Assembly (NCBI GenBank): GCA_964035575.1
Contig: OZ037843.1
Coordinates: 1,054,001-1,118,000 of the forward strand
Source: Rhynchopus sp. YZ270_cl-10
Taxonomy: Eukaryota
DNA length: 64,000 nucleotides
Reading direction: 5' to 3'
In this document: piece after piece, positions 8,726-41,371 of the stretch
How positions within the stretch are numbered: position 1 is the stretch's first letter
How the letters are laid out: each line of letters starts with the position of its first letter
Notes under the pieces: model-generated
What the model was told of the DNA's origin: nothing
Database searches by the model: none
Seen by the model: the letters and a program-made list of their open reading frames with translations, nothing else
Made by a program: the position numbers and the translations under genes

Positions 8726-8836
8726 CAGTACACAGTACACAGTACACAGTACACAGTACACAGTACACAGTACACAGTACACAGTACACAGTACACAGTA
8801 CACAGTACACAGTACACAGTACACAGTACACAGTAC
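8726..8836. repeat. (CAGTACA)n microsatellite
   Basis: Perfect 7-bp tandem array. Confidence 0.97.
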
Positions 8837-9191
8837 CGTGACTTCACCGGCCAACACCGGAAAACACCGGCAAACATGGTCAAAATCAGGTGGAATATAC
8901 ATAAGTACATCATGGGGGGTAGGGAACAGGTAGCGCCGCAGGCGCACGGTACCCAACTTTTTTCTTTTTTCTTTCCCCTTTTCTCTGCTTTCTTTTGATT
9001 GCGCGAGCCGATTGCTCTCCACGGTGGGGTCACATGTGTGTCCAAAAACTATCTGAAGTGCCCTTACTGTACAATATGGGATTCTCTGATTTTCTAAAGG
9101 AAATCGTGTAATCAAAAAATTTTTGTACCGCGAAAAAACCGGGTGTGAGGGTGTGGATTTAGCGCGCGCCCTGATTGGGAACATAGGGACA

Positions 9192-9194
<3 letters not shown>

Positions 9195-9225
<31 letters not shown>

Positions 9226-9615
9226 TACTCAGGTAGCTACGTAGCCTTCAGGGAGGCAATCGTGTGCTAATACAGAAAGTATCAGTCAAGGCTGTCCTTA
9301 CAGACGCATGCCAAAGCGGCCGCCACATGGGTGTGGACTTTAGATTGAAGTTTCATCATTGTACTAGCCCAGGGAGGGTTCCCGGCTACCGGCGAGGTCT
9401 CTTCCAATCCGTTCCCTAGTTTCCTAGGGGGGCCTCCTTGGCTTCACTGGCTAGGGCTCTGCAGGTCCCTCCACACATGTTGTGTGCCTGCCTTCAGCAC
9501 CCAGGGTAGCATACCCAGCACCTTTTACCCTCAGGTCAGACCTTCATAGAGTTTCAGGAGGAGTGCCACAAAAGGGCCCCCGGATGCAATTTAACGTCCA
9601 GCCCAGGACGTGGAG
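9195..9615 (-). mobile_element. Poly(A)-tailed retroposed fragment
   Basis: A ~30-nt T-run followed by GC-balanced unique sequence, directly abutting a second poly-T element. Confidence 0.4.
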
Positions 9616-9689
9616 TTTTTTTTTTTTTTTTTTTTTACTTGGTATTTACTCTCGTCTCTTTAGCGCTGCCGAAGCAGTGTGGCTGCTCT
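9616..9689 (-). mobile_element. Short poly(A) retroposon family A, copy 1
   Basis: Reverse complement of 47621-47699 (agagcagccacactgcttcggcagcgctaaagagacgagagtaaataccaagt-polyA). Confidence 0.75.
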
Positions 9690-10020
9690 ATTTTTTTTTT
9701 GCGGGGCAAAACAATAATATAAAATGGCGCCGCAGGCGAAAAATTTTGAGGGTACGGTGTAAAAATCTAGCTTTTTACACCACAGAGCCACTCAAACGAA
9801 CCCTTTTTTGCGGAGCAAAAAATGAAAAATGGCGCCGCAGGCAAAAAAAAATCAAGGAACAGCCATTTCCCAAAGGCACTCCCGTGGTTCAACCACGGTT
9901 CTACCAGGCGGGGAAAAAATGCGGGAAAAAAATCGAGTCCGCCCTAATCTGGGGACGACATTTACAGAAAGGCCTGGTGAAAAGTGTCGGGTTTTTTTTT
10001 CCCCTCCAGATTTCTCTGTT

Positions 10021-10051
<31 letters not shown>

Positions 10052-10072
10052 GAAAACCAGTTTTTTAACCGG

Positions 10073-12052: not shown

Positions 12053-12117
12053 ATTTTTAACCACCCTGATACCCTGCTTCACACTTTTCTATAGAAAGTA
12101 TATGAAATAATTGGCGC

Positions 12118-13041: not shown

Positions 13042-13558
13042 GGGGGTAGGGTAAAAACGATGACATGTGCATGTGTCATTTACTGTAATCGGAATAATTC
13101 CTCGATGTCATTATGTGGTACGTGTTGGTACGTGTCATTCTCTGTACAGAACACACATTTTGCTAAGGTTTGTTGAGGCGTCGTGTGGGGTCCTTCCGCT
13201 GTTTTATTTATTATTCTTAAAACGCGTTCCTGGATTACCCCTATATTAGGACAACTTTGTGGGAATGAAACGCCCACGTCGTTTCGTTTTTTTTTATTCT
13301 CCCTAAGCAGGATAAGTGTTCACCTTATTTCTGCACAAACATCCGTTTCTTCTTATACAATTCTTTGGGAGGTACTGCACTGCGCAAGTCCCTGACACCT
13401 CTCTTTTCTTTTGTTGGCAGACCAAGGGGGTTAGCTATGCCTTACCACACTCACGGGGGGACGAAGTGTGCTCTCTGTGTTTCCTCCTGGGCCGGAGGGG
13501 TATGCGGGACTATTGTGTATTGTCCTCAGGGAGGTAACCTTCTCTTGTCTCTATTAAA

Positions 13559-13669: not shown

Positions 13670-14092
13670 AATTAAATGCGCGTTGACCCGTGGTGGCTGG
13701 GGTGTATAAATGCTTGGGGCCTGGTGGCTTCCCCATGCCGTGAAAAAGCGACCAACAGGAGCTTGCTGGGACATGGCTGGGGGGTTATGTGTGCCTCCTG
13801 TTAGGAGGCCCGCAGCAGGCCCCGTTGTCGGACAACGTGGAAGGCTGAGAGAGAGAAAGAGAGAAGGTGTCTTCCTTGCCTTGGGTGTGAACTTCTTTTT
13901 CCTTCCTGCTATAACGCTCTGCCCGCTATCTTTTATTGCAACAGTTTTTATTTTTATATTTTGAGGTACAGTGTCACGAGAGGGCGTTGTATTTCAACTC
14001 TACTTTATTTATATTTTATTTACACTACTTTCAGGACTTTTGCTAACTGGCATGATGGCATGATGGCATGCTGTTTGCACTTTCAACTTCTC

Positions 14093-14158: not shown

Positions 14159-15604
14159 CCACTATTTTTTGAACATCATGCCATTCAGGGGAAAAATACC
14201 AAAGTTAGCAAAAGGCCTGCTGCACTACTTTCTCGCGGAAAGTGTCACGTCGTTCGCCCAATCATTTTTATTCCTCCTTTTTTATATATTTGGAATTCTG
14301 CCCCATACCCGGAACCTGTTGGAACGGGTAGGAAACCCCGCAGGTGACGTGGACACTGTCCTACCTATGAAAAAACATGGAAAATAAAATGGACAACTGT
14401 TCCTTGGTACATCACCCCCCTCCCAGCCTACCGTAAATGGTATTTGTGCAAGGTGACGAAGCACGAGGGGCTTGGGTGCATTGCATAAAACTTTTTGTTT
14501 CCCTTTCCCCGTTTTGTAGTCTTTTTGATCAACAAGCAAAGGGCGTCTCATGCATTTTTTTAGTTCGTAAAAAAGGCTGGGGGAATACAGAGGTTTCTGC
14601 CTCTGTTCTCTTACGGTACGGACCCACTCACGTCTCGCCCTTTGCATGATCTCTACTGAGATGCGTTTTTGCACCTTTCAACTCTTTTTTGTCAAAAAAA
14701 AACCCTTCCCCTTCGTTACAGTGAGATAAAACGATTTTACTAACGCGCCACGAAAAGCCTCCTGAGCCGCTGTTTCCCGCTCGAAGCGAGGGAACACGAG
14801 TTAAAGGGTGCCTTTTTCGTTCGAAGTGCGAAAAAAATGTTATTTCACTTGGTGTGGCTGAAAGGGGGTGCTACTTTCTGCTATTCTGGGCATCTGGATT
14901 TTTTGGTGCGGCTGAAGGGAGCTATTTTTGTGCTACTTTCTGCTATTTTCTGCTATTTTGGGGGCGTCGACCACACCATGAGTCACTGATTATGTGGGTG
15001 ATCTATGAATGGGGAGAGCTTTCTTCTCTATGTCCTCAGTAGCGTCTCACAGACTCCCACAAGCTCTCACTAAGTGTTCAGGGGATTTTTTTTGTACTTT
15101 TTGCACTTTTTGGGGGGGCATGCTTGCATCAGATGGAGTATACAGTGTGTCCAGTGTGTACAGCCCCCACCCTTTATTTGTATTTGTATTTTATTTTTGA
15201 AAAATTGAATAATTGATGACGTGCACACACCTCGCTTTTTTACTTACGCGTACTACTTCGTGAGCGGAAAGTGTCACGTCGTTCACCCCCTAACCGTGCT
15301 CCGCAACACCACCAACAGGTGAGAGATAGTGTGTGTGGAAGCGTGAACGTATTATACAACTACAAGAAGGGGCGGTGAGGGAACGACAAATGACACTTTT
15401 AGTTGTAATTTTACTTCACAAGGGGAAGACGTTGACACATGACGTTGACACGATGGCGTACACCAAACTATTTTCTTGTCTTGTTGCTTGTTCAGCCAGT
15501 CGCGACCATAAAACGTTTTTTACACGTGATATGAAAAACGGTGACTGCAGGATTTCCTAATCCTCACCCTAGACACGGCGGGTTTTCAGGGTTTTTTCTA
15601 GGGG

Positions 15605-18600
15605 CACGACGTTGAAGTAACTTACTTTACTTGTGGTTTTACATGTAATAATTTTTACTTGTGGTCACAAGTAATTACTTGTGACCACAAGTAACTTTTA
15701 CTTGTGCACAAGTAATTTTTTACTTGTGCACAAGTAACTTTTTACTTGTGCACACGGTGCGCTGGTCAGAGATCTGACCAGGTACCCAGGTACCCAGGTA
15801 CCCAGGTACCCAGGTACCCAGGTACCCAGGTACCCAGGTACCCAGGTACCCAGGTACCCAGGTACCCAGGTACCCAGGTACACGGTACACTGTGTACAAG
15901 GAAAAAAGTCGTGAAAGAGCAACCACAGCTCCACATGACAAACACAAAAGTGTCCAGTCACGTGGGGCATTCATGCACTGAGGAGATAATGTTCCAACAA
16001 TTTACAAGAAAGATTACTTAACCTACTGCTGGAAGTTGCCAGGTCGTAGTAACACACAAAGTGTGCCTCCGTTCGGGAAGACCGGATATTCTAGAGACCA
16101 AAAAGGCCTCAAGAATATCTTCCGGTAGTCAAGGTATAACCGAATGAACGGCCCAAGACCCCCGTGGAGAAGTTAAATGTTGTAATGCTATCAAGTAGAA
16201 ACTGCGACCACTGTCTTACCCTCCTCAATACATGGTGGAAGATGTCTTTGACAACAAATATCCTGTACCCAGGTACCCATATTCCCAGAACCACGCAGTA
16301 CTACGTCGCAGTACTACGCAAAATTTACCACCAGACCCTGTCTTCGTGCACCTGAAGTACAACGCCGCAGACAGGCCAAACATGCGTTGGACTCAGAGGA
16401 ATGCCCGCTGTGCAGGTATCATGAGAACCAACTCCCAGCAACAAGGGGCGCCTTTTGGCGGGCGTTGTTGAGTTGAGGGTGTTTGGGGTGCAAAGTTTTC
16501 CACAATTTTGATGCGCGGGTACAGAAGTGTTGTCTTGTTCTTTCATCTCTAGGAATGTAAATGTCAATCGCGTTTAACTACCACTAGGGCTTGTTCAGTG
16601 AACCCACGAGGGGTCGAAGGGGGTTGGTTATCCCATATCTATCAAAGGTTGTGTCGACCAGGCGAATCCACTATGTTACGCTGTACGTTGTTAAATCCGA
16701 AGAAATAACGCTTTAGCAGCCGCAGGAAGTTTGTTAAAAAGAGTGCCTCACGCTACACCCGCGATTGACTTAGATGTTATAACAAAGAGAATTCAGAACA
16801 AAACAACACCCTGCCCCATACACACTAAATTGTCATGCTTCAAGAGCATGCCTGGGCCAAAATTACTGTGACAAAAAGGCAACAAGACCACCCACAAAGA
16901 GTGTGAAATGTGCACTGGATTTCTGGGGGAACGCAATATTTTCTTGTGCCTCGTCCTCCGCAAGCAGAGGACAGACTTTCCGGAAGGTTTCCAAAGTCGA
17001 ATTTCTTGCACTAGCTATGCTCCCTGGTTAATGGCAATAGCAGTGACGGACAAAATGTTCCCACCCCCCTTCATCCGCAAACTCAGTATTGATGCAGGTG
17101 AACGTGTGTGAGTTGAATGTCGGAGACGGCGAAGGTTCTCATCGCACTCGCAGATGCTGTTCAGATTTCACGATCCTGTGATGAGTGGAAATGTGGGGTG
17201 TAGTTAGGTTATGGTAGCTTGGAAAATACAAGTTAATTCATGACTTCAAGAAAAATGGTTATCGAATTTGAGGATGTAGAAAGACAGGGACGCAAAAAGT
17301 AGTGTAAAACCCCCCATATGTGAAAATTGTATTTTCTGGGGGAGATAAAACCATACCTTGTCTGCACATTCACCATTTGTGCCAGCTCCTCTGAGGGATA
17401 GAAGCTGGTTCTGGATCAACGTGGACTGCTCTTAGGGGAACCGGGGAACCGTTCCCTGGTTCCCGTTCCGAAATGACCGGTTCATTATACTCCAGTTCCG
17501 GGGTATCGGACTGTTGGGGCCCCCTCGCCCGACCCCCAGATGACTGGCATGACAGCACCTTAATTTTTTTCTGCTCGCTGTGCTCGCGGAAGTACACCCC
17601 AAAAAAATTTCCGCTCGCTTCGCGCTAACTTTTGGAAAAAATCTGAAAAATCGTGCTTCGGGCCCAAAAAAACGCACCTCAAATAGGGTTACGTCTGGGG
17701 GTGAAAAAGCAGTGTTTTGTGGCATTTCCGAGCTGTGGTGGGGCATATTCGGAAAAGTGGACAAATTTTAGTGACTTAAATTTTCACATAATATGAACCC
17801 ATACTCCAAAACAAGGGGCATTTTCAGTCTGAAAACCCAAATTCAGATGAAATTGTGGTGTTTTTGACTGGGAACAGGTAGCGCCGCAGGCGCACGGTAC
17901 CCAACCTTTTTCCTTTCCCTTTTCTCTGCTTTCTTTTGATTGCGCGAGCTGATTGCTCTCCACGGTGGGGTCACATGTGTGTGTGAAAACACTCTAAAGT
18001 ACCCGTACTCTGAACTATGAGATTCCTCTGGTTCTAGTAAAGAAACCCCGTCTCAAAAAGTGCGTAAATATCCTTTTCCGCCCAAGAGGTCGTTTTGTTG
18101 CATTTCCGAAGACCCACCCACGAGACCTGTCAAATCTATGTGACATGTTATAAAATAACATCTAATCTCGCATGTCGTATCACCAAAAACCCTAGTAACA
18201 TTATCATCATGTGTGGGATGGTAGGTGTTCACATGACTCGTCACAACTCTTCACAACACAGTCTATGACATCTATTGTTGTGAAAGAGTTGTGAATTGAA
18301 ATGAAAATTTGTGTTCTCCAATACCCCGAACACCACCAGGAAAATTGAGCCTTTTGAGCCTTCTTTCGAGCCTTCTCAAGGGGAAAAAGTTTAATTTTCC
18401 CAGTTTGTAATTTTGTTTTGCCGTACAATTGGAAATGAAGCGTTCCTTGTGCTAGTGATCGAAGAAGACGGTGTAATCTTCTTCACAGGATTTGATCTTC
18501 GAAAATTTCAGAAATCCTTTCCGAGCAATGTCGTAGGTTTCTTATGAGGCGTTCTTCTGAGCACCCTCATAGATATTTGCTGCCTGCTTCTTCGTAGCCC

Positions 18601-18959
18601 TTCGCGATTTTGTGTTTTTGACGTTAAAATGCCTATGGGTGTTTTTTGGGGGTGAAAAAACCTCAAAAACGCGTTTTAGACCCCTAGAAAGGCTCAAAAC
18701 TGCTCAATTCTGGCTGGAATTGCAAAATTGGGCACTTTTAGGGTATGACCAAAAAAATTTTCGAGAGTTCAGTTAGTACAGAGGCGCACCTTAGAAGGTT
18801 TTGACAGGTGATTTTTACTTGTGCACAAGTAAAAAGTTACTTGTGCACAAGTAAAAGTTACTTGTGATCACAAGTAATTACTTGTGCCACAAGTAAACTA
18901 TTTTCACAAGTAAAATTACATGTAAAACCACAAGTAAAGTCATTTACTTCAACGTCGTG
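15605..18959. mobile_element. Non-autonomous TIR element with CAC...GTG termini
   Basis: TIR cacgacgttgaagtaa..acttgtggttttacatgtaa and its reverse complement. Subterminal ttacttgtg repeats. GGGG on both sides (possible 4-bp TSD). A solo end occurs at ~51144. Confidence 0.8.
15778..15882. repeat. (CCAGGTAC)n microsatellite
   Basis: Perfect 8-bp tandem array. Confidence 0.97.
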
Positions 18960-20099
18960 GGGGGACGGGGGGGGACGGCGTCCCCCCCCAGATTTTGGGG
19001 GGAAACGCGTCCCCCCCCGGGGGGGGACGCATTTTGACTTGGGAAAAAAAGGATATGGGGGGTGGTTGGGGTCACCCGCACAGACCCCCATTTGGGACAC
19101 CACGCACGTAACCCGTACCAGAAAAAAAAGGGGAGGCAGGGAGTCGAGCGCGCGCGAAGCGCGTCTTATCCCCTTCCTGGCATCATTGTGAAGAGGATAT
19201 AGCGAAGTAAAGTTTCAGACCGTGCCCCCAATTCACTCAATCTTTGCACCATTTGACGGACCGAACAAAGAGTGAGAATAAGGGATCGGCAAAAATAAAA
19301 AGTAGCGTACCGTGCGCCTGCGGCGCAACTCAAAACTTATGAGCGGAATCCCACAGCCCTCTACCATAGTTTGGCTGTAAAAATGTTCAATTTTAGGTCA
19401 CAATTTTTTGAAATGTTGCGTACCATGGCTTCGCCAGAAAGTTCTGATATCATGACCGCCGTTTCTTCTGGTACTGAGGGAAGGTTCCGTGGAACATGAG
19501 AAAAAGGGTTGGTTCTTGATGTACGTTACCATCCCACGTTATCACGTATTTACGTGAAATGAACGGGCTTTTTTGCGCGGATCGCGAAAAATTTTGACCC
19601 CTTTTTGGACATATCTTCACGGTTTTGGAAAATTTTCCATGAAGATAAGCGGAAACCCTGCTTGCACCTGCGAAAAAATGAAATACTCCCCCCTTCTTTA
19701 TTTATTCGTTGTTTGTTGTTTGTTGATCGCATCCATCCTCGTCCGTACTTCAGGCAAAGCACACAGCACTTTTGGTGGTTTGAAACACAGCAGTCCGCAC
19801 TAAAGTCAGATGTCCGCTCTGCACTTTACTTCTCTTCTTCTTCTTCTTCTTTTTTTTTTTTTTTTTTTTTCAAACCCCAAAAGTCCCGAAATACCCCGAA
19901 AACCCGCGTCCTGAAGTACGGGGGAGAGGTGGAGCACAAAAGGGGGGAAGGGGAAACGGTAAGACTCATGGCAACCGAAGAACGCGTCTTTCATTTCCAG
20001 ACGTATTGCATACTCGTACAAAATGAAATACTCCCCCCTTCTTTATTTATTCGTTGTTTGTTGTTTGTTGATCGCATCCATCAGGACCCTTAATAGGGA

Positions 20100-26530: not shown

Positions 26531-26688
26531 CTAAAACAGGCTTTTTGCCCCCCCCTAGGCATACTTGTCCCCCCATTATGGGGAGGGGTAAAATATGGGG
26601 AAAATATGGGGGAAATATGGGGGATTTTCCCCCCCATATTCCCCCATATTTTCCCCATATTTCCCCCATATTTTTTATGGGGGAATAG

Positions 26689-26960
26689 ATGTACTGGTGT
26701 ACTGGTGTACTGGTGTACTGGTGTACTGGTGTACTGGTGTACTGGTGTACTGGTGTACTGGTGTACTGGTGTACTGGTGTACTGGTGTACTGGTGTACTG
26801 GTGTACTGGTGTACTGGTGTACTGGTGTACTGGTGTACTGGTGTACTGGTGTACTGGTGTACTGGTGTACTGGTGTACTGGTGTACTGGTGTACTGGTGT
26901 ACTGGTGTACTGGTGTACTGGTGTACTGGTGTACTGGTGTACTGGTGTACTGGTGTACTG
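26689..26960. repeat. (TGTACTGG)n microsatellite
   Basis: Perfect 8-bp array inside E1. Confidence 0.97.
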
Positions 26961-27302
26961 TGTACGAAGGAAGAGGTACTGCTTCTGTACGTTACTTACC
27001 TACCCACCCCTCCAACACAACATTTTCGACGTTTCTCTGACGCATGAGGATTACATGGTTGTAAGTCCCTATAAGAAGGGCAAACCTGCTGACGTTTTGG
27101 TATGGGCAGAAAGAAGGGCAACATTATGAGTTCCTCTCAGACTCCCCTGTTTTGCCACCGGTGTCAGGCATCAACAGGCCTAACCGCCCAGATGGTTTCA
27201 ACACAAAGCTTCACGACATCGGGCCTTCCGGTGCCATCGATAAGGCCCTCGACACAGACGGGTTAGCATTGCCCCTGCGTTTGACCTATAGCCCGCTTAC
27301 TG

Positions 27303-27997
27303 GTACACTAGTACACTAGTACACTAGTACACTAGTACACTAGTACACTAGTACACTAGTACACTAGTACACTAGTACACTAGTACACTAGTACACTAGT
27401 ACACTAGTACACTAGTACACTAGTACACTAGTACACTAGTACACTAGTACACTAGTACACTAGTACACTAGTACACTAGTACACTAGTACACTAGTACAC
27501 TAGTACACTAGTACACTAGTACACTAGTACACTAGTACACTAGTACACTAGTACACTAGTACACTAGTACACTAGTACACTAGTACACTAGTACACTAGT
27601 ACACTAGTACACTAGTACACTAGTACACTAGTACACTAGTACACTAGTACACTAGTACACTAGTACACTAGTACACTAGTACACTAGTACACTAGTACAC
27701 TAGTACACTAGTACACTAGTACACTAGTACACTAGTACACTAGTACACTAGTACACTAGTACACTAGTACACTAGTACACTAGTACACTAGTACACTAGT
27801 ACACTAGTACACTAGTACACTAGTACACTAGTACACTAGTACACTAGTACACTAGTACACTAGTACACTAGTACACTAGTACACTAGTACACTAGTACAC
27901 TAGTACACTAGTACACTAGTACACTAGTACACTAGTACACTAGTACACTAGTACACTAGTACACTAGTACACTAGTACACTAGTACACTATAGTACA
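27303..27997. repeat. (GTACACTA)n microsatellite
   Basis: Perfect 8-bp array inside E1. Confidence 0.97.
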
Positions 27998-28979
27998 CAA
28001 GGAAAACAATAGGAAAACCCCCATATTTCCCCCATATTCCCCCATAATCCCCCATATTCCCCCATATTTGTGCAGTATTCCTGCTGTATTCCCCCCATAT
28101 TTCCCCCATATTTCCCACAAAAGTGTAGGGTACCAAAATATGGGGGAATAGGGCCTCCCCATATTGGGGGGACAAGTATGCCTAGGCATAGTGTGCAGAC
28201 GAACAAAATGTTCGTCGATGTTCGTCATGGGGGGAAAAAAAATTTTTGTTCGTCGTTGTTCGTCGTTGTTCGTCGTTGTTCGTCGTTGTTCGTCAATACA
28301 CCCCGGTACAGCAGTACCGTCTTCATATGGACCGCAACGATGTGTACGTAACGTTCGGAACGCAACGAACGTAACGAACCGAACACAACCAGGATGGAGG
28401 TTTAGAGACCTGAAAAAAAATGGCCGAAACCCACCCCTGGGGGGGAGGGAGGGAGGGTGACCAAGCAACCTTGAAAAAGAGTCTCTGAAAAAAAAACATT
28501 CCTTAACACTGAGTGTTAAGGAATGTTTCCCCTGGGAACATCTACACGAAGGGTGGAGGAACAAAGGACAAAAAAAACTGGGTATCAAAAATCTTATTTA
28601 CAGAGTCTACCTTCTAGAAAAGCTGTACAGCAGAACACGAAAAAACAAAGGCAACGCTTACGCACCCGCTCCTGTGGGGACAACCCCGGTCTTTCGACGG
28701 GGCCGTCGCCCTTTGCGGGCACATTATTCACAGGTTGGGCAACTGATATGATGTCCAACAAAAACGGTCTGAAAGTTTTAAAAAAAAATCACACAACAAA
28801 AATCACGCAGCGCATCATGTGGACAATGTGCGGGGATTTGGGAACATCCACACGCAGGATGGAGGAACAAAGGACAAAAAAAACTGGGTATCTAGTCTAA
28901 ACAAAAATCTTATTTACAGAGTCTACCTTCTAGAAAAGCTGTACAGCAGAACACGAAAAAACAAAAGCAACGCTTATTA

Positions 28980-29457
28980 CAATGTGCGGGGATTTCCACG
29001 ATTTCCCCTGTTTTGACACCCAGCGCATCCTGTGGACAACAGATCTGCTCGCGCTGTCAAACGACGAGGTGTGGCACGAGTTCAAGGCATACAGAAATCA
29101 GCCTGCCTCATGGCTGATGAGGGGTGTGTACTGGATTACTGGTGCGAGGGGAACACGAAGTTCCCCAAGTTGTCTCTCAAAGTCAAAGTTGTCGCTGGGT
29201 TGCGGACACCGCTCTCCGTGACGAGCGTGGAAGGCGTGTTCTCCACCGCAGAAGCGGCAAAGAACAAGAGGACGCGCTCAGTGAAGGCTGGAGTACGCCC
29301 GCCGACTGTTCCTCAGGAGGTCTTGCGACATTCTGGGGCTTCTCGGTGGGAATAACAAGTACCGAGAAGCCCTTGACGCAGACACGATGAGCGGTGAGGA
29401 GTTGGAAGAGGAATTGGAGTAACTTAATACTGAATTCGAAATAGAAATTATCTCATA
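28980..29457 (+). pseudogene. Inverted, frameshifted partial copy of the E2 transposase 3' end
   Basis: GDFHDFPCFD..LSNDEVW..LDYWC..LRTPLSVTSVEGVFSTAEAAKNKR mirrors 29472-29950. Confidence 0.85.
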
Positions 29458-29471
29458 ACCGGTAATAAGGA

Positions 29472-31943
29472 TCAGATAATTTCTATTTCGTATTCAGTGT
29501 CATACTCCAATTCCTCTTCTTCCGACTCCTCATCGCTCATCGTGTCTGCATCAAGGGCTTCTCGGTACTTGTTATTCCCACCGAGAAGCCCCAGAATGTC
29601 GCCAGACCTCCTGAGGAACACTCGACGGGCGTACTCTTCGGCCCCCACCGCGCTCTTCCTCTTGTTCTTTGCCGCTTCTGCGGTGGAGAACACTCCGTCC
29701 ACGCTCGTCACGGAGAGCGGTGTCCGCAGCCACGCGACAACCGCTGCAGACAACAGGGGGAACTTCTTCTGTGTTCCCCTCTTGCACCAGTAATCCAGTG
29801 CGCACACCTCATCAGCCAGAGCTGAGGCAGGCTGAGTTCTGTATGCCTCGAACTCCTTCCACACCTCCTCGTTTGACAGCGCGTGCAGATCGACTGTCCA
29901 CAGGCTGCGCTGGCTGTCGAAACAGGGGAAATCGTGGAAATCCCCGATCAACACCGTCTCTGGCTCAAAAATTAGCAGCAGCTCCCACCTGGAGCGTGAC
30001 TTCCACGAATTGTACATATTCTCCATCAGATCCTGTAGCGGCCGGGAGGTAGCTTCGCTCTTCATCATGCGCACGTACTCATCTAGGGTTTCGAGGCTGG
30101 TCTGTGCAGGAGAAGGATTCTGTATTTTGTTGATGACACCCATTGCAGGCTGGAGGAAGTCAGCAAGCAATACGCAGTCATCGACGTTCCTCTGCCAGTG
30201 GCCCTCTTGTATCAGCCGGGCCAGCACCCTGAGTGTCTCCGGTTTTTTCGCTCTGCCCATCTCGGAGTCCAGGAACTCCAAGAGGACGTCCGCCCGGTCC
30301 CGGATGTGGATCACGAGATCCATGGCGGCGCCCCAGCGGGTGTCGGAGGTGGAGGTCGGCTGTGCGGGAGCGACGACCTCAACGTTCTGAGCGTCGACGT
30401 CCACTTCCTCCCGCACGAACTGACGGGCCTTGCCCAGCACCTCCTCATCCGTTTCCGCAGCTGTGAGGCGCAGTAACGACCGCAGTGCTCGCACCTTCTC
30501 CTGCTTCAGCGCTGCCTTCACACGCAACCACGTGTCCTTCGTGCCACTCGCCTGCTCCTGTTCCTTCTGGATTTTCGCCAGTTGGAACAATTTCCATCTG
30601 CGACGCCTGGCCTTGCATCCGAAGAATTGGCTTATGAGCGTCGTAAATGCGTACGCATATTTGAACGCCTCCTTCACAGTGACTTTTAACACCGAATTAA
30701 GATGATGGCCCAGGCACCAAGCAATTTCCTCCGCGGCATCCGTCAGGCCCCTCAGATTTATCGATCCGTAGTCCGCCACTACCGTACTCCGAACAAGTTC
30801 ATAGTATGAGCGAACTTCGTGCAACAGATTCGCGACGTCCATACCCCTGTCCTGTTCACCGTCACAACGAGCTCGAACCATCAGGAGCACTGCTTCACCC
30901 CCCACAAAACCCACCACGGCTAGGAGGGCCATACCGATGTATCGAACCCCCGTGCCGTCTATCCCGAGGGCGACGGTTTTGCCTGACAATTTTTTTTTAA
31001 TGGCCTGCATTGTTTCCTCCGTGAATTGTTTGCTTTTATTGAGCAGTGAGCGCGGCTGCGGAAGCGTGACGAACATCGAGAGCACCAGTGCCAGAATACA
31101 TGCCTGCTGATGGGTTATGCCCGCAATTATGAGGGCAAGGGCCCATGCTCTTTTGAACGCCGTAGGGGAAACAATTGGCGTCAATACGGCTTGAGTCGGT
31201 GTTGGGGTAGGTGCGCTGGTCGTTTTCTGCTGCGCCTTCTCCTCCTTCTTCCCCTTCTTCTCCTCCACCCTCTTCGCGTGTGTCTTGTTCCGACCGTCTA
31301 CGTGGGATTTTACGCTCGTAATTTCTTGGTGCTTTATCATACAGCTACAAAGTGTGCACCAGAGCACCTCGTCGTCCCCCGTCATTCCGTCGGTCAGCAG
31401 CCCCTCTCTCACCTCGAAGGGCACGTCCTTGACCGCCCTGACCTCTATGCCAAACTGCTGGGTTTCTGTCAGTCCCTGGATCCTCGCGTCGGCTGTGATC
31501 TGTGGTTTTTTCCGTCGCGCCTTTTCAGCCTCGGCCTTGACGTCCGCCTTTAACTTGTTCGTGTCATTGGCCTTTTCTGTGGGTGTCAGTCCAGTCTTTG
31601 GGGAAGGTTTTGCTGCCGTCTTCGCAGAACTTTTCGCGCTTGGTTTTCCCGCAGGTTTTGCTGCTGCCTTTCCCGCAGGTTTTGCTGCTGGTTTTTCCGC
31701 AGGTTTTGCTGCAGGTTTTGCTGCAGGTTTTGCTGCTGATTTTTTTGTTGTTTTCTTTCTTGACGCCTTCCTCACGGGCTTCACATCGCTCGACTCGCTC
31801 TCGTCACTCCCGCTGCTACTGGGCTCCCTTTTCCGCTTCGACATTTTTTTTTGGGGGGTTTTTGAATCTGTTTTTATTGATGATGCCGCATTGGGGTGTG
31901 GGAAGGAAGAGGAATTGTTGGAAATTTCACTAGAAATGCACAT
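29472..31943 (-). CDS. hAT-superfamily transposase
   Basis: Zn finger WCTLC...H...H; LGIDGT; VVADYG; CLGHHLN (CxxH); DTRW; hATC dimerisation domain LDYW..FPLLS..LRTPLSVTSVDGVFS..R..VFLR; N-terminal AKPA repeats. The true start may be MSKRKRE. Confidence 0.9.
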   Translation of the reverse strand: MCISSEISNNSSSFPHPNAASSIKTDSKTPQKKMSKRKREPSSSGSDESESSDVKPVRKASRKKTTKKSAAKPAAKPAAKPAEKPAAKPAGKAAAKPAGKPSAKSSAKTAAKPSPKTGLTPTEKANDTNKLKADVKAEAEKARRKKPQITADARIQGLTETQQFGIEVRAVKDVPFEVREGLLTDGMTGDDEVLWCTLCSCMIKHQEITSVKSHVDGRNKTHAKRVEEKKGKKEEKAQQKTTSAPTPTPTQAVLTPIVSPTAFKRAWALALIIAGITHQQACILALVLSMFVTLPQPRSLLNKSKQFTEETMQAIKKKLSGKTVALGIDGTGVRYIGMALLAVVGFVGGEAVLLMVRARCDGEQDRGMDVANLLHEVRSYYELVRSTVVADYGSINLRGLTDAAEEIAWCLGHHLNSVLKVTVKEAFKYAYAFTTLISQFFGCKARRRRWKLFQLAKIQKEQEQASGTKDTWLRVKAALKQEKVRALRSLLRLTAAETDEEVLGKARQFVREEVDVDAQNVEVVAPAQPTSTSDTRWGAAMDLVIHIRDRADVLLEFLDSEMGRAKKPETLRVLARLIQEGHWQRNVDDCVLLADFLQPAMGVINKIQNPSPAQTSLETLDEYVRMMKSEATSRPLQDLMENMYNSWKSRSRWELLLIFEPETVLIGDFHDFPCFDSQRSLWTVDLHALSNEEVWKEFEAYRTQPASALADEVCALDYWCKRGTQKKFPLLSAAVVAWLRTPLSVTSVDGVFSTAEAAKNKRKSAVGAEEYARRVFLRRSGDILGLLGGNNKYREALDADTMSDEESEEEELEYDTEYEIEII

Positions 31944-32772
31944 GTCTTGTAAATGAAGACACAGAGGAAAAGCGTTGAGAGAGATGGCGAAGAAAGCGCG
32001 AGAAGAACGAAGAAAGTAAAGGTGGCCCTTAGGCTACTACTGTGGATTTTCGCAGAGCGACGACCTCAACGTTCTGAGCGTCGACGTCCACTTCCTCCAC
32101 GAACTGACGGGCCTTGCCCAGCACCTCCTCATCCGTTTCCGCACGTGTGAGGCGCAACGTCCGTTGCTCGCACCTTCTCCTGCTTCAGCGCTGCCTTGAC
32201 ACGCAACCACGTGTCAAGGCAGCAGAATTGACTAATGAGCGTCGTAAATGCGTACGCATATCCGAACGCCTCTTTCACAGTGGCTTTTAAAAACGCGGTT
32301 AGATGGTGACCGTTCTGTTGAGGAGCGCGGCTGGGGTGATCCCCGCAATGATGAGGGCAAGAACCAAAAAGCACCGGAGGGAAAAAAAAATAGCCAAGCA
32401 GGCTAAGGATTCTGAGAAACAGAAGCTTGCAAACGCCAGGTGCCAGGGCTAAGGTGGCGAAGAAAGCGCGAGTAGAAGGAAATAGGGGTAAAACAAACTC
32501 TCACTTTTATTTTTTTTGGTATTCCGGAGGGGGGCAATATTGACAGGCCCCTGCCACAAGGGAGGCCCCCCCCCCCCCCCTCCCCCCCCTCCCCCCCTCC
32601 CCCCCCTCCCCCCCTCCCCCCCTCCCCCCCCCCCCCCCCCCCCCCCCCCCCTGTGGCAGGGACCTGTTCGTCGGTTTTGTTCGTCGATGTTCGTCGACGA
32701 ACCTCGACGAACAAAACCGACGAACATTTTGTTCGTCGACGAACAAAAATGTTCGTCTGCACACTATGCCTA

Positions 32773-32805: not shown

Positions 32806-33786
32806 AGGGGGTATCTTAAGGGGGTGAAATGGCCAAAAAATCGAACTTTTTCGCCTGGGTGCCAAAAAAGGCACCAAACCAGAAAATATGTCCCTTGGGA
32901 CCCCAAAAATCGAATTCCGCCCGGTTTTGAGCACTTTTGACCACTTCTGAGCGACTTTTTTGCATTTTTTAAAAAGTGACCACCAACTTGTACCTGCCCA
33001 CCCCCCCGTAGGTAGAGCAACTCACATATCCATCAGCCTCAGTGTTAGCCAGGGGCCAGAAAAGCCCCCAAAGCCACATATTTCCACCCCAGAACCTATC
33101 CCGAGGGGTACCCAGGTGGTTTCGGGGTGTTTAGGGGACTTCGTGGAACTTAGAACCATGTTTCAAAAAGGGTACAAGGACGTGGTCCCTTGAGAGGGCA
33201 AGCCCTTGGTACGAGTTCCTGGACACTTCTTGAAACATGGTTCTAAGTTCCACGAAGTCCCTCTAAACACCCCGAAACCACCTGGGTACCCCTCGGGATA
33301 GGTTCTGGGGTGGAAATATGTGGCTTTGGGGGCTTTTCTGGCCCCTGGCTCACACTGAGGCGTGATGGATATGTGAGTTGCTCTACCTACGGGGGGGTGG
33401 GCAGGTACAAGTACTGTAGGCGCTTTTTTAAAATTGCATTTCAGGCATCATCTGAGTGTTTCTGTGTCAAAACTGGGGCGCTGGTGCGTTTTTTGGGTCC
33501 CCTAGGTGGTTTGGTACGGTTTTCGGGGACTTCTGAGGTTCTGAAGATCAAAATCGGGAAAATTGCTTATCGAGTACAGTGACCGGGGGGTGGGCAGGTA
33601 CAAGTTGGTGGTCACTTTTTAAAAAATGCAAAAAAGTCGCTCAGAAGTGGTCAAAAGTGCTCAAAACCGGGCGGAATTCGATTTTTGGGGTCCAAATGGG
33701 CCTATGGTGTGGTTTTTTTGACCTCAGGGGGAGTTTCCCAATTTATTGCCTACTTCACGTTTTTTGACAGCTTAAGATACCCCCTA
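32805..33786. mobile_element. Train 1, element E3: foldback TIR element (TAGGGG end family)
   Basis: TIR tagggggtatcttaag / cttaagataccccc-ta; internal palindrome centred near 33200. Confidence 0.88.
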
Positions 33787-33956
33787 GGCATACATAGCGT
33801 GCGAACGGCTCATTCGCATCATTCGCATCCTGTTCGCATTGGGTATTCGCATCCTGTTCGCATTGGCCAATGCGAACAGGATGCGAATGACATGCGAATA
33901 ACATTTATTATGGGGTGGCGACAGGCAAGTTCTCATTTTTTGGTCAATTTCCGCAC

Positions 33957-34310
33957 TACACAGTACACACAGTACACACAGTACACACAGTATACACAGT
34001 ATACACAGTATATACAGTATACACAGTATACACAGTATACACAGTATACACAGTATACACAGTATACACAGTATACACAGTATACACAGTATACACAGTA
34101 TACACAGTATACACAGTATACACAGTATACACAGTATACACAGTATACACAGTATACACAGTATACACAGTATACACAGTATACACAGTATACACAGTAC
34201 ACACAGTATACACAGTATACACAGTATACACAGTATACACAGTATACACAGTATACACAGTATACACAGTATACACAGTATACACAGTATACACAGTATA
34301 CACAGTATAC
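33957..34310. repeat. (CAGTATACA)n microsatellite
   Basis: 9-bp array with some CAGTACACA variants. Confidence 0.97.
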
Positions 34311-34713
34311 CATAGCTGATAAGCTAATAAAGCCTAATAGGATATTAGCCTATTTAAGCCTTATAGAATAGGCTAATGAAACTGGAATAGGCTAATATTT
34401 TATTAGCCTATTCCAGTCCTTCCCAGCTACCACTGGTGGTACGGTGGTAGCTGGCTTAACCCGTTAAACAAATCCGAAAAATCCAAAATTTAAGGCCAAC
34501 TCCGTTACAGACACAACACAACTTATTTCTCTTGTGTTTTTCACTGATGAGCGTGAGTGAGGTGTATGTTACAGCACCGACTGCAGCCTACGTCTAAGAT
34601 GGCATATAATAGGCTATTAGCCCAATATTAGCCTATTATAAGACATACTGTGGGTGTTATAACGTTATCGATAACGTTATAACAAGTGTTATTTTGGAAT
34701 AACGTTATTCAGC

Positions 34714-35313
34714 AGTACAGTACAGTACAGTACAGTACAGTACAGTACAGTACAGTACAGTACAGTACAGTACAGTACAGTACAGTACAGTACAGTACAG
34801 TACAGTACAGTACAGTACAGTACAGTACAGTACAGTACAGTACAGTACAGTACAGTACAGTACAGTACAGTACAGTACAGTACAGTACAGTACAGTACAG
34901 TACAGTACAGTACAGTACAGTACAGTACAGTACAGTACAGTACAGTACAGTACAGTACAGTACAGTACAGTACAGTACAGTACAGTACAGTACAGTACAG
35001 TACAGTACAGTACAGTACAGTACAGTACAGTACAGTACAGTACAGTACAGTACAGTACAGTACAGTACAGTACAGTACAGTACAGTACAGTACAGTACAG
35101 TACAGTACAGTACAGTACAGTACAGTACAGTACAGTACAGTACAGTACAGTACAGTACAGTACAGTACAGTACAGTACAGTACAGTACAGTACAGTACAG
35201 TACAGTACAGTACAGTACAGTACAGTACAGTACAGTACAGTACAGTACAGTACAGTACAGTACAGTACAGTACAGTACAGTACAGTACAGTACAGTACAG
35301 TACAGTACAGTAC
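34714..35313. repeat. (CAGTA)n microsatellite
   Basis: Perfect 5-bp array of ~600 bp. Confidence 0.97.
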
Positions 35314-35706
35314 CCCTGCTAACGACCCACCCAGAGTGGGACAAAAAAAGCTCATCCCAAAATATGCCGATCACAAAAAAATCACAAAAAACCCCGATCA
35401 TCCAACAATCACACACCCACAGAATTCACACACTACTATAACATTCGCACTACGTTCGCATCATTCGCACTATGTTCGCACTGTGTTCGCATCGTTCGCA
35501 TCATTCGCACATGCGAATATAGTGCGAATATAGTGCGAATGATGCGAATGATGCGAATGATGCGAATGATGCGAATGATGCGAATGATGCGAACGACAAT
35601 GCGAATGAATGCGAACAGGATGCGAATGCATTCGCACATGCGAATATATGCGAATGGTCATTCGCACGCTATGTATGCCTAGGGGGGGGGGGGGGGGGGG
35701 GGGGGG

Positions 35707-36673
35707 TAGGGGGTCCGACTGTGAGTAAAATTACCGTACCAAAAACTCATTATTAAACTTCTGGTCATCTCCAAGGCAACTGCGGGTGAAACACTCCCTC
35801 AGAGTGGGTCACAGGGGGCCTGTGGGCCGAAAAACGACCCAGAAGCCACCCCAGAATACAAAAAAATGGAAAAAAATAGTGAAAAAACGGCTTTTTTCAC
35901 GTTTTGGCCATGTTGGGCAAAACAGCGATTTTTCAAGAAAAAAACCAAAAAACCCCCGGAACCCCAATCTTTCCAAATTTCCACCTCATCCCCACCCAAA
36001 CACCGCAAAAACACGATAGAAAATCGTCTTTAAAAACACACTTTTTTCAAAAAGGCTATTATGGAACCCGCCTGATGACCTTTTTGAAAAAAATGTGTTT
36101 TTAAAGACGATTTTCTATCGTGTTTTTGCGGTGTTTGGGTGGGGATGAGGTGGAAATTTGGAAAGATTGGGGTTCCGGGGGCCCTTTTTCGGGGGTTTTA
36201 AGCAAAAATATGGCCGAGAATGTGGTCGGAGCAATGGTGGCAGTGCTGTCCCTAGGGTGTCCCTAGCACTTTTGGGGGTGTTTTTCAGTGTGAAAACACC
36301 AAAAAAACACTTCCAAAAGTGTCAAATATGCCCAAAACAGGTTGGAATGGACTCACAGGCCACTTTTGGGGTATATTTGTGCCAAAGGAGGCTTTGTGAT
36401 GTCAAAAAATATGCCGTTTTTTGGTTTTTTTCTTGAAAAATCGCTGTTTTGCCCAAAGTGGCCAAAACGTGAAAAAAGCCGTTTTTTCACTATTTTTTTC
36501 CATTTTTTTGTATTCTGGGGTGGCTTCTGGGTCGTTTTTCGGCCCACAGGCCCCCTGTGACCCACTCTGAGGGTGTTTTTCACCTGCAGTTGCCTTGGAG
36601 ATGACCAGAAGTTTAATAATGAGTTTTTGGTACGAAATTTTATACACAAGTCTATTAGGAGTCGGACCCCCTA
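35707..36673. mobile_element. Train 1, element E5: foldback TIR element
   Basis: TIR tagggggtccgact / agtcggaccccc-ta; long inverted arms with centre near 36070; internal sequence shared with E7. Confidence 0.88.
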
Positions 36674-36957: not shown

Positions 36958-37141
36958 ACAGTACAGCACACAGTACACAGTACACAGTACACAGGTACAC
37001 AGTACACAGTACACAGTACACAGTACACAGTACACAGTACACAGTACACAGTACACAGTACACAGTACACAGTACACAGTACACAGTACACAGTACACAG
37101 TACACAGTACACAGTACACAGTACACAGTACACAGTACACA
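36958..37141. repeat. (CAGTACA)n microsatellite
   Basis: 7-bp array. Confidence 0.96.
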
Positions 37142-38622
37142 CGGGGTCCACCAAAAATCGACATTTCGCAGAGTCACCAAAGTGTAAGATTTTTTCGGCA
37201 TTGGAAAGATTGGGCCATTTCTGAGAACTTCAATAAATCAGATCTCTGATGGTGTGGCTAACTCCAAAAATAAAGTGTATTTTTTGTACTTCTTTTGTAC
37301 TTTTTTTGTATACCCTAAAAAGGGGTTTTTTTTATTTTTGGTACCAATTCGTACTTTCCCAATCGCCCCAAGTCATGGCACCCAAAAGTTCCTGGCGAAG
37401 CCACGGTACGCAACATTTCTGAAAAATGTCGACATAAATTGGCACTGTCGTTGGTAATTATCGTCAGTTCCGTAAATTTCACCTAGTATTTTGCTAGAAC
37501 GAAAGTTTCTGGCGAAGCCAGGTGCGCAACATTTCAAAAAATTGCGCTTATACTTGCACATTTGTGCTGCTGAACTATGTCATGGGAAAGGGTGGGTTGC
37601 AATCTTGCGCCGCAGGCGCACGGTACGCTACTTTTTTCGTTGGTCATATCCTTCTTTCTCACTCCTCATTGGGTTCTACGAGCTCCGTCCGTAAAATGGT
37701 GGGGTCACAACATGCAGCAAAGTTCACAGCTATGCAAACTGCCCCCACGTTCACCTTGCACTTTACCCTCAGTGGTCAAGTACTGACCATATTTTACACC
37801 AAACCTGAAAATGCCCTGTAAAAACTGATGCATGCATTTTAGGTCAAAAATACTCATTTCTCAGCGCAAAGTGACCCCATCACAGCACGCACGGACTCCC
37901 GAGAATCGAAGAAGAAAAAAAAATTCCCCAATTTTTTGTAGGCCAAAAAAAAATTCCCCCCCGACCCCGACCCCCAAAAAGTTTATACAGGGAAATAATT
38001 TTTCGCGAAAAACACCCCCAAAATAAAGTGTAATTTTTGTACTTCTTTTGTGATTCTTTTGTGCTGTTTTTGTACTGGATTTAGCCACACCATCTGAGAG
38101 ATTTATTTTTAATTCCCATTTTCATATCGGGAGTTTACGTGGAAACGCCTTTGAAACCGTGCGTTCCTTAAGGATTCTATAGGCAAAACAGGCGCTTTGC
38201 ACCAAAAATCACGAGTTTCAACACAAAACCCGGTTTTGGCTCAGACCCATGTATGTGGCGCCGGAAACACGCTTGCGCGTTGTCAGAACCCTGCGTGGGC
38301 CACACACGGTCGTGCACACGTGCCCTTTGCCTTGTCACACACCCAAAAACCCACACACACGTCATATATTCACAGCGGAAACACTACAACCATTGCTGGG
38401 AAAATGTTTGGTTCACAAAGTAAAAATAACTATTCATCTGATGAAATAAAGTGCACTTTACTAGCGTCGCGAACCCCGCAAATGGGGTTGTCAGGACCAC
38501 CACAAGTAATCTTTTACGGCTGCGCCCTTTTTGCACCAACCTCTAAAAACCCACCTTTTTCCTTTCCATCCTCCACACCACAAACTAAGGCAGAAATACA
38601 CCTTTACACACCACAGTGCACA

Positions 38623-40341
38623 ATGGGCTGTCTCGAGCGTGTACTGTCGCTTGACGGGACACTGGACAAGCAAAGCAGACATATACGAAATGTATTCTTT
38701 ATTTTCAACTGCTTAGTATTTGCAACCTCGTCTTCCTTCATCCTGTTAGAGGTGGCATCCTTCCGTGGGAGCTACGTCTTTATAGTATGTGCGATGTGCT
38801 CTTTGCTGTGCAGCATCTGTTCTATGCTAGTCATTATGTTTAAGTACGAGCTGACCACATCCGTCATGGTGTCAGTCGGCGGACTGTACGCTGTTTCGCT
38901 GCTGGGCAGTGACCTGAGTGAACGCACTGAATCTGGATATGCCTGGCCATTGATGGTGCTTGTGGTGGACTATCTCCTGGTGATGCAGGTGCCCACACGG
39001 TACAGCACAGTTGTCGTGGTGTGCACACTGGTGTATTTGGTCATTATTGCTGCAGAAGAATTGTGGAGGTTTGGTCTGCTCGACATGCCCGGGCTCGCAC
39101 CTCAAGACCGTCGACGTTCCTTCGTGGATAGCCTGGGTGACTGTGATGTGCTGCCTTGCAAGCAGAATAGAGCTGGGAAAGAGCTTGTGGGTGCAGCGTC
39201 CGTCTTCGTCCTTGACTTCATCACAACGCGAAGATTTGCACGTGGTCTCCTGAAGGAGCAGGCATCAATGCAACGCACAATCGCGACAGTGCAGGACATC
39301 GCCTCGCTCCTTGCTGGCTACGACGTGGAGAAGGTGGCGGAGCTGCTGGAGGAGCACGGTGGTGAGCTGCCTGAGGGGATGACGACAGCACTGCGGAAGT
39401 TGGAGCAGAACCTGCGTGTGTACAAGGCGTACCTCCCGCAGACGTGTCTGCCGTTTGAGGACGAGAAGGACGAATGTGTGGAACCTGGTGGTGAGCTGGA
39501 TGGCACTGACAGTAACGATGAAAGCACAGGGTCAGCGGCAACATCGAACACGTCTGTTGCAGTGCGACGCACTTCCTTCCGTGCACAGTCGCTGCTGCTC
39601 TCATCCACAAATGCAACACTGCTGATACTGAACATCAAAGACACCCTGCACCGCCTGGAGGAGGACAGTGCACGCTTCTCCGACCTCTTCACAACTGTTC
39701 TTCTGAAGACCCTGCAGGCAACAGACAGCAGACGTGGGATGGTGGACGTCTTTGTTGGGGACAGGATCCACTGCTCGTTCAACACGTCGAAGCAGTGTGC
39801 GTCGCACGCAACCTCAGCACTGCATGCAGCAAGCATGCTCATGAGAGCTGGCCTGGCAGCCTCTGTGAACGTGGGTGTTGCAATGGGGACAGTGCTGCGT
39901 GGTGACATGGGTTGTGATGTGATGCGTCGCTTCAGCATGGTGGGGACACTTGTGCGCAACGTGCACGGGATGGAACGTGCAGGACGTATGCTGGGGTGCG
40001 ACGTTGTCTGCAACAGGATGTGCTTCAGCGACGCTGAGTGCGAACACGACCTGCGTCTGCTTCCGTGCAAGGTGGAGGTTGCTCGAGACTGCGAGGCACA
40101 GGTTGTGGCTGAGCTGGTTTCGAAGAACGAAGAAGCCTCAACTGCAGCAGACGAGTGGATGTACCTGATAGGCGGGAAGAAGCACTGGGATTTGTACAAC
40201 ACAGTGGTGCGTGGGTACCTGCGTGGTGAGAGTTGTTACACGGACGTTGCGAGGGCGTGGGTGGAGGCGGGTGGGAGTGGCACACCAGCACATGCAGTCC
40301 CTTCCGGGACGTGCAGTGTTGTGTGTTCCTATCTTCGGTGA
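38623..40341 (+). CDS. Multi-pass membrane protein with a degenerate class III nucleotidyl cyclase domain, paralog 1
   Basis: About 5-6 hydrophobic N-terminal helices, then KAYLP, VDVFVGDRIHCSFN, NVGVAMG..GDMG..RRFSMVG. The ATG follows ccacag, where similarity to paralog 2 begins. Confidence 0.85.
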   Translation: MGCLERVLSLDGTLDKQSRHIRNVFFIFNCLVFATSSSFILLEVASFRGSYVFIVCAMCSLLCSICSMLVIMFKYELTTSVMVSVGGLYAVSLLGSDLSERTESGYAWPLMVLVVDYLLVMQVPTRYSTVVVVCTLVYLVIIAAEELWRFGLLDMPGLAPQDRRRSFVDSLGDCDVLPCKQNRAGKELVGAASVFVLDFITTRRFARGLLKEQASMQRTIATVQDIASLLAGYDVEKVAELLEEHGGELPEGMTTALRKLEQNLRVYKAYLPQTCLPFEDEKDECVEPGGELDGTDSNDESTGSAATSNTSVAVRRTSFRAQSLLLSSTNATLLILNIKDTLHRLEEDSARFSDLFTTVLLKTLQATDSRRGMVDVFVGDRIHCSFNTSKQCASHATSALHAASMLMRAGLAASVNVGVAMGTVLRGDMGCDVMRRFSMVGTLVRNVHGMERAGRMLGCDVVCNRMCFSDAECEHDLRLLPCKVEVARDCEAQVVAELVSKNEEASTAADEWMYLIGGKKHWDLYNTVVRGYLRGESCYTDVARAWVEAGGSGTPAHAVPSGTCSVVCSYLR

Positions 40342-40468
40342 TTGTGTGGCTATTGCGTTCATGTTTAAAGTACAGTGGACTCACGTCTACTGGCACTGTT
40401 TTGCTGACCAAAATCTTCGGTAGAACAAGTTTTCCACAACCTTCCTTCCCCCCCCCCCCCCCCCCCTA

Positions 40469-41371
40469 GGCATAGGTGCCCGCCGAGTCGTTTTTGGGCG
40501 AGTTGTCGGAACTTTACGATTTCACCTAACAACTCGCCCAAAACTCGGACAACTCGGCCACAACTCGCCCTATACTCGGCACAACTCGCCCTATACTCGG
40601 CACAACTCGGCCACAACTCGGCCACAACTCGCCCATTTTTACAGGCAAAAACATACAGGGATGGGAGGTGACGTTGTAAGGTTACACACATGTAACGTTG
40701 GTACAACACATAATCTCAAGAAAAACAACCAGGGCTAAGGCCAAACGCCACTCATTACATGCACCTTGTCATATGACTAGTCATAGGTGGTAACTAGGTC
40801 GCGGTGGTCCATGGGCCACCGTGCACTTTTGGTAATTGCTGGGGGGAATGGGATATACTCCGTACATGGATACACACAGAACACACGGTTCCCCAGACAT
40901 CTGTCAGGCAATCACTGATTCACTTCACACAGGTCGGGCAGGCGCTGCCTGCCCATCCTCTTTTCCTGTCTGCTATCGATTCCAGGTTCACAACGTTCAC
41001 ACGTTTAGTCAAAATGCTTTGGGCGACGACTTCCTTTGGGATACACAAAACCACACAAAGCGCACATTCACAGACCAGCTGTGAAGCGTGGGATGCACGA
41101 GATAAAACGTGATGTGGTGTACCTGTGTACCTGTGTACCTGTGTACCTGTGTACCTGTGTACCTGTGTACCTGTGTACCTGTGTACCTGTGTACCTGTGT
41201 ACCTGTGTACCTGTGTACCTGTGTACCTGTGTACCTGTGTACCTGTGTACCTGTGTTTTTGTAGCCATAAAAAATCCCAAAAAAAAACAACTCGCCCAAA
41301 AAAAATGGGCGAGTTGTTGGCCGAATTTGGGCGAGTTGCCGAGTTGTTTTAACTCGCCGGGCACCTATGCC
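40469..41371. mobile_element. Train 2, element E6: non-autonomous TIR element (GGCATA end family)
   Basis: TIR ggcataggtgcccg.cgagt / actcgccgggcacctatgcc; caactcg subterminal repeats. Confidence 0.88.
41118..41255. repeat. (TGTACCTG)n microsatellite
   Basis: Perfect 8-bp array inside E6. Confidence 0.97.

Follow-up and report, generated by a model that had tools for sequence, protein, structure and literature searches.

Why do the long microsatellites in one stretch of the genome of Rhynchopus sp. YZ270_cl-10 share a single palindromic core? The stretch, hereafter the window, comprises 64 kb of contig OZ037843.1 (positions 1,054,001 to 1,118,000), and our in-window counts and null expectations refer to it alone. 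The birth of long, pure microsatellites with units of 5 to 9 nucleotides is usually ascribed to slippage. Here, slippage-prone repeats are short, and one palindromic family, built on GTAC, reaches 700 bp within transposons, with intermediate states visible. We favor, with a probability of about one half, the interpretation that the arrays represent one microsatellite family that has been exchanged among terminal inverted repeat (TIR) elements at the junctions between arm and core and has grown through repair synthesis following the breaks that transposons make. The window displays kinship among the repeat units, turnover of units inside arrays, a flank common to two hosts, a junction position, and chimeric elements with one core and different arms.

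A GTAC Core Is Common to All Long Arrays

We re-found eight near-perfect arrays of more than 100 bp at the places reported in a first-pass annotation of this DNA, and all eight have the GTAC/GTATAC core that it had described (one is mostly GTATAC). Lag mismatches were absent from four of the eight. The annotation had spoken of eight different microsatellites; the correct tally is seven long-array units, CAGTACA being used twice, plus one variant that occurs within an array. The arrays are as follows:

8726–8836, plus strand: array 1, CAGTACA ×15.9, inside a hAT-type miniature inverted-repeat transposable element (MITE)
15778–15881, plus strand: array 2, CCAGGTAC ×13, 24 bp inside the sub-terminal repeats of element D
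26690–26965, minus strand: array 3, TGTACTGG (minus strand CCAGTACA) ×34.6, inner border of the left arm of element A
27299–27990, plus strand: array 4, CTAGTACA/GTACACTA ×86.5, inner border of the right arm of A
33957–34310, plus strand: array 5, CAGTACA, then CAGTACACA ×3, then CAGTATACA (9-mer ×39.3), in element B
34713–35313, plus strand: array 6, CAGTA ×120.2, perfect, in element B
36958–37141, plus strand: array 7, CAGTACA ×about 26, including one CAGGTACA unit, after a dispersed repeat
41117–41256, minus strand: array 8, TGTACCTG (minus strand CAGGTACA) ×17.5, inner border of the right arm of element C

Array 2 is followed by odd units (TA-CACGG-TA-CACTGTG-TA).

Among perfect runs of period 1 to 12, the eight arrays were the only ones in the window longer than 60 bp. 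The longest perfect run without a GTAC core was 60 bp, dinucleotide runs reached at most 19 bp, and mononucleotide runs reached at most 32. Given the shortness of the core-free and dinucleotide runs, ordinary slippage is inadequate as an explanation, and the contention that random slippage cannot generate the core bias stands. GTAC is present in 1.5–3.1% of random cyclic units of 5 to 9 nucleotides drawn from the window, and by our own arithmetic, which counts four independent families and allows for any of the 16 palindromic cores, the chance of a shared core is about 1e-5. Outside the arrays GTAC is enriched just 1.24-fold, and close pairs of GTAC sites there number 15 against 5.8 expected, which is rank 25 among the 256 four-mers.

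Stretches of period-8 arrays in viral contigs gave a different picture: GTAC 63, GATC 57, CTAG 45, and CATG 46, with varied spacers. GTAC-core arrays are about as common in those contigs as arrays built on the other three palindromes, and the bias therefore belongs to the genome studied here. No blastn match was found between the viral period-8 arrays and the window. A metagenome scan with a terminal motif returned two loci at 67–68% GC, which we took to be unrelated.

The Arrays Lie at Arm–Core Junctions of TIR Elements

The proposal that most arrays are inside TIR elements is borne out. Seven of the eight lie in delimited ones, and the eighth (array 7) follows a dispersed repeat; the usual position is the border between sub-terminal repeats and core. 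The hosts are listed below (TSD, target-site duplication):

8484–9173: MITE host of array 1, with a 15-bp perfect TIR (CAGGGCGCGCGCTAA) and an exact 8-bp TSD
15598–18960: element D, a TIR element with its core at 15877–17071
26556–28184: element A, non-autonomous, TA GGCATAC...GTATGCC TA, with sub-terminal repeats CCCCCATATTT
33785–35681: element B, non-autonomous, with TTCGCA sub-terminal repeats
40467–41373: element C, non-autonomous, with ACAACTCGCCC sub-terminal repeats

Elements A to D, the hosts of arrays 2–6 and 8, have TIRs of 16–21 bp (imperfect in D) and sub-terminal repeats that are specific to each family. In A, the two inner borders are occupied by arrays 3 and 4, which are inverted relative to each other. 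Another domain of tandem motifs lies within 55 bp of five of the eight arrays, as it does for 5.8% of non-coding positions (binomial probability 3e-5, with a threshold picked post hoc and arrays that are not independent of one another). The same arm–core border is occupied by mini-arrays in three further elements:

28305: doublet of GGTACAGCAGTAC, in the transposase-bearing element 28183–32772
55696–55712, plus strand: GTACCCA ×2, at a site homologous to that of array 2, with the unit inverted relative to array 2
60540–60565, plus strand: TACAGTG ×3, inner border of the left arm of the TA-flanked element 60429–61164

The core of D and that of the element at 53832–56011 are 95% identical and inverted relative to each other; their arms differ, and the core is joined at a GTAC stack.

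Two other repeats in the window contain GTAC. A 41-bp minisatellite at 60803–61027, whose unit includes the motif, lies at the inner border of a TIR arm. A dispersed repeat of about 55 bp has seven copies (13950–14015, 22430–22490, 50262–50320, 51255–51320, 53622–53690, 59350–59415, and 59450–59510), six of them with GTAC near one end and two of them within one intron; we found no connection between this repeat and any array in the window.

The Units Are Related and Turn Over within Arrays

Read on the same strand, the units are CAGTA, CAGTACA (twice), CAGTACACA/CAGTATACA, CCAGTACA, CTAGTACA, CAGGTACA, and CAGGTACC, each of them one or two edits from CAGTACA, the hub of the network. The mean pairwise cyclic edit distance among the seven units is 2.10, as compared with 2.70 ± 0.16 for null units cut around real GTAC sites, and none of 400 draws was as low.

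Succession is visible inside the arrays themselves. Array 5 proceeds from the 7-mer CAGTACA through three 9-mers to the GTATAC 9-mer, its majority unit, which has lost GTAC and has still expanded to about 35 copies. Hub units persist at the margins of arrays 3 and 5, the last unit of array 3 being one of them, and the single CAGGTACA unit in array 7 is of the type that makes up array 8. Moreover, the 5′ flanks of arrays 5 and 7 are homologous over about 34 bp, though the hosts and units of the two arrays differ. The dispersed-repeat flank of array 7 has five other copies in the window, all of them array-free.

Variants of the hub keep GTAC in 13 of 21 insertions and 9 of 21 substitutions. Six of the seven variant units have kept it (p about 0.1, by our own arithmetic), a retention weakly above chance that, under descent, would be weak evidence for either side.

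Descent of all arrays from one ancestral satellite was the outcome that the first-pass annotation had set against its own proposal of a process at GTAC. Because the units are close to CAGTACA, arrays 5 and 7 have homologous flanks, and units turn over inside arrays, common descent holds in part.

Contig sets from four runs belonging to two studies, one of which is possibly the source of the assembly, cover the elements deeply, with the caveat that summed contig depth is not copy number. In the four runs 9, 5, 29, and 8 contigs (both ends summed) cross the ends of the stretch that ends in arrays 7 and 8, a result that concerns the edges of the arrays and not their lengths. One contig of run X3 has a foreign flank at the start of the TGTACCTG array.

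A Proposed History and the Points against It

We propose that the first seed was perhaps an excision scar of the TA-CAG-TA type. The family built on CAGTACA would then have come to sit at the arm–core junctions of several unrelated TIR elements, passing between them by template switching in the repair of cut-and-paste gaps. Break-driven repair synthesis would lengthen arrays and make them homogeneous again, and in this way single-unit mutants could take over whole arrays.

Certain findings weigh against this history. D and 53832–56011 have different units, in inverted orientation, at their homologous site (CCCAGG versus CTGGG), and independent additions account for this better than descent does. 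In a heterogeneous stack at 24405 (see below), changes are found at 7 of 18 spacer positions versus 1 of 24 core positions (Fisher p 0.013), unlike neutral decay. The nearest domain detected by Tandem Repeats Finder is 894 bp away from array 7 and 482 bp away from array 8, which, by eye, adjoins degenerate sub-terminal motifs. The support from a flank that bears an array in two of its copies, and from the one contig with a foreign flank, is thin. Finally, we rejected hairpin stability as the cause of the specificity with which this family alone expands, as 17–42% of random units of the same length and GC content fold equally well.

TA-Directed Transposition at the Locus

The window contains a candidate source of transposase:

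28183–32772: transposase-bearing element, with a 23-bp perfect TIR that includes TA
29472–31844, minus strand: open reading frame (ORF) for a hAT-like transposase, with (by eye) a BED-like finger, CxxH, and a hATC-like C terminus

Judged from its sequence, the product of the ORF looks like a hAT-like transposase. An atlas comparison gave 0.94–0.95 to hAT/BED clusters, and the match to Hermes was weak (E 1.4). Pfam gave no match at 0.01, a protein search returned one match and no named relative, and a single-sequence fold (pLDDT 39) was unusable.

Between 26556 and 48132, chains of elements (A, the transposase element, E, B, H, C, I, J, and K) are joined at CC-TA-GG, with a single TA common to the neighboring elements at three junctions. 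The pieces between elements are TA-G32-TA, TA-G25-TA, TA-C15-TA, and TA-GGC11-TA. From the chains, the single-TA junctions, the TA-bounded remnants, and the hAT-like transposase, TA-directed cut-and-paste that leaves short remnants is evident at the locus, though the remnants have G..C and not C..G ends.

A TSD of 8 bp is the norm for hAT elements. Among the nine chain-type elements tested, five lack one (6–8 mismatches in 8), and the remaining four have 0, 2, 2, and 4 mismatches, with homopolymer flanks and one end mis-set by a base. The transposase element (6 mismatches in 8) has a TA in common with its neighbor. This element and the MITEs related to it may make up a group akin to hAT whose target duplication is 2 bp (or CTAG). 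The annotation had equated the unit sizes with TSD sizes, an equation that finds no support here: most hosts show sharing of TA, not duplications of 5–9 bp.

Two further observations concern these elements. After the 3′ end of the transposase gene comes a degenerate copy of that end, inverted and 85% identical (28987–29946), so placed that a hairpin RNA could form. A second TA-chain element, at 44195–48132, has ORFs at 45318–46718 and 44470–45366 (minus strand) that resemble a frameshifted DDE transposase with CxxH.

Excision Scars as Possible Seeds

Each array might instead have started anew. TA-targeting transposons would insert at G-TA-C and leave scars of the form TA plus C..G, each scar would supply one more GTAC target, and repair at the repeatedly cut site would then amplify one of the scars. 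We consider this account unlikely, but it has the following stack in its favor:

24405–24441, plus strand: TA-CCATG-TA-CTGGC-TA-CTG-TA-CAGTG-TA-CTTTG-TA-CGG, a scar stack or a decayed array

The best evidence of action at GTAC itself comes from this stack and from the inversion of units at the D site, and the end of array 2 is similarly heterogeneous. Every unit can be parsed as TA plus C..G, a weak argument in that the parse holds for any GTAC-core unit; TACAGTA and TATA are among the Sleeping Beauty footprints reported in the available part of a study of that transposon (10.1101/659086); and a like logic of stacking is seen at CC-TA-GG. The composition of the long arrays argues the other way. 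Array 6 has 119 CAG units and no CTG, whereas the footprints in that source are mixed, and this uniformity rules out pure footprint stacking; a mixture of left-end and right-end scars was confined to the short 24405 stack. Most units (CACAG, CACCAG, CACTAG, CACAGG) lack the symmetry of two-ended scars, and no donor with matching ends was found among the TA-C..G-TA pairs of the window. By our own reading, none of 101 gaps of at least two bases between paralogous stretches resembles TA plus C..G, and outside the arrays TACAGTA occurs 0 times and TACTGTA 4 times.

Excision scars, then, can seed arrays but cannot build them. The cycles of insertion and excision that had been suggested cannot on their own yield a 120-unit array with a single type of footprint. 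As to the broader suggestion of a site-specific process at GTAC, the 24405 stack and the presence of TA-directed transposition agree with it, and the kinship of the units to CAGTACA and the expansion of array 5 after it had lost GTAC do not. Exchange of one family and repeated birth of arrays differ mainly in how often seeds are born, and both could hold in part.

A more sweeping idea, which we entertain only tentatively and think probably incorrect, is that a TA-cutting transposase (possibly hAT-like and duplicating only TA) makes GTAC a self-feeding microsatellite factory. Each cycle of cutting and repair would add targets, nearly all long microsatellites of the genome would be made by transposition, and they would then serve as swap points for new chimeric MITE families.

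Other Explanations

It is improbable, in our judgment, that selection has favored the arrays as binding platforms, either for a transposase or for a host protein with (C/T)AG(G)TAC as its recognition sequence, the arrays acting as extra sub-terminal repeats that would give an element an edge in competition or make it better tolerated. The arrays do adjoin sub-terminal domains, the left and right arms of A hold arrays 3 and 4 in inverted orientation, and CACGGTAC is the most frequent extension of GTAC (15 sites); the available part of a report on placozoans offers a precedent in a motif in Mutator TIRs at loop anchors (PMC12221973). Against this, the orientation of arrays with respect to arms is not fixed, the carriers belong to several families that differ in TIR and TSD, runs of 86–120 perfect units exceed the other sub-terminal domains here, and array 5 grew after its loss of GTAC.

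Somewhat less probable again is the addition of repeats at breaks by a reverse transcriptase (RT), telomerase-like or of the non-LTR (non-long terminal repeat) kind, by copying a short RNA template again and again. Long perfect arrays of kindred units might resemble error-prone templated repeats, and the window has an intact-looking long interspersed nuclear element (LINE) with OTU-APE-RT-RNase H domains at 253–8260. That LINE, however, ends in (CA)n and not in a GTAC repeat, every array is homogeneous for its own different unit, no body is common to one side of the arrays apart from the flank of arrays 5 and 7, and an RNA family search found none.

That the arrays are artefacts of assembly or amplification is hardly credible: their edges recur in contig sets from two studies, and they have ordered internal variants and homologous flanks.

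Genes and Other Repeats in the Window

The window is rich in repeats and contains, besides nested TIR elements, the LINE, two paralogous cyclase-like genes, and (by eye) a Sas10-like gene. The LINE consists of ORF1 and the OTU-APE-RT-RNase H ORF2, and (CA)n at both of its ends suggests insertion into CA repeats or a tail of them; a short element at 62973–63095 resembles its 3′ end. The cyclase-like genes (38623–40341 and 48348–50059) are 90% identical and belong to a large family of membrane cyclase-like genes whose paralogs number in the hundreds; a protein search gave 359 matches, none of the 120 listed being a named relative. The three introns of the Sas10-like gene all start with GTATG, and two end in a CA-rich CAG, like the intron form reported for Diplonemidae in the available part of PMC12621601, so that the introns of the window point to a diplonemid. 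A protein search with the Sas10-like exon gave no matches. Near-perfect foldback elements are found at 41372–42563, 32961–33438, and 35720–36648, with arms of up to 542 bp and 100% complementarity.

Significance and Comparison with Known Systems

If the link between transposon breaks and arrays were true genome-wide, this genome would provide a direct test of the transposase-driven birth of microsatellites and of the exchange of modules among MITEs. If descent alone is responsible, the association of MITEs with microsatellites is extended to a poorly studied protist lineage.

We found no description of such arrays in the literature on diplonemids. According to the available part of the Diplonema papillatum genome paper (PMC10161547), repeats make up 52% of that genome and MULE, Helitron, and TATE ORFs are present, satellites being unmentioned in that part; the supplement text available to us has no match for microsatellite or GTAC.

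The locus resembles the hAT superfamily in its transposase and in the one MITE with an exact 8-bp TSD; it departs from it in that the transposase-bearing element and its relatives use a TA shared between neighbors in place of an 8-bp TSD. It is unlike a non-LTR 3′ tail, a conserved one-sided body not being found and a shared flank being confined to arrays 5 and 7. With the Tc1/mariner footprints of Sleeping Beauty (10.1101/659086, available part) there is agreement in detail: TA-CAG-TA is one unit of array 6, and TATA is the core of the new unit of array 5. Those footprints, unlike the arrays, are single, include both CAG and CTG, and span 0–3 nucleotides, and a search of the window turned up no mariner donor. 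As with the loop-anchor motif in placozoan Mutator TIRs (PMC12221973, available part), a short motif lies in the ends of DNA transposons and may have a binding role.

The closest precedent is the pearl/DTC84 type of MITE with related internal microsatellites. In the available part of PMC3879986, the MITE-like elements pearl, DTC84, DINE-1, and mini-me are described as having an internal microsatellite, and kindred motifs (ACGG, ACTG, ACGA, ACCG, ACAG) recur in elements that are otherwise dissimilar. The pearl/DTC84 microsatellites are tetranucleotides of 2–13 copies with an AA TSD, whereas those described here have units of 5–9 nucleotides with a palindromic core, run to as many as 120 perfect copies, and lie in hosts whose target sites are TA or 8 bp long. 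What the two have in common are terminal or sub-terminal inverted repeats in non-coding elements (here A, B, C, D, and the MITE at 8484) and a microsatellite placed beside a tandem domain, as in the five of our eight arrays that lie within 55 bp of one.

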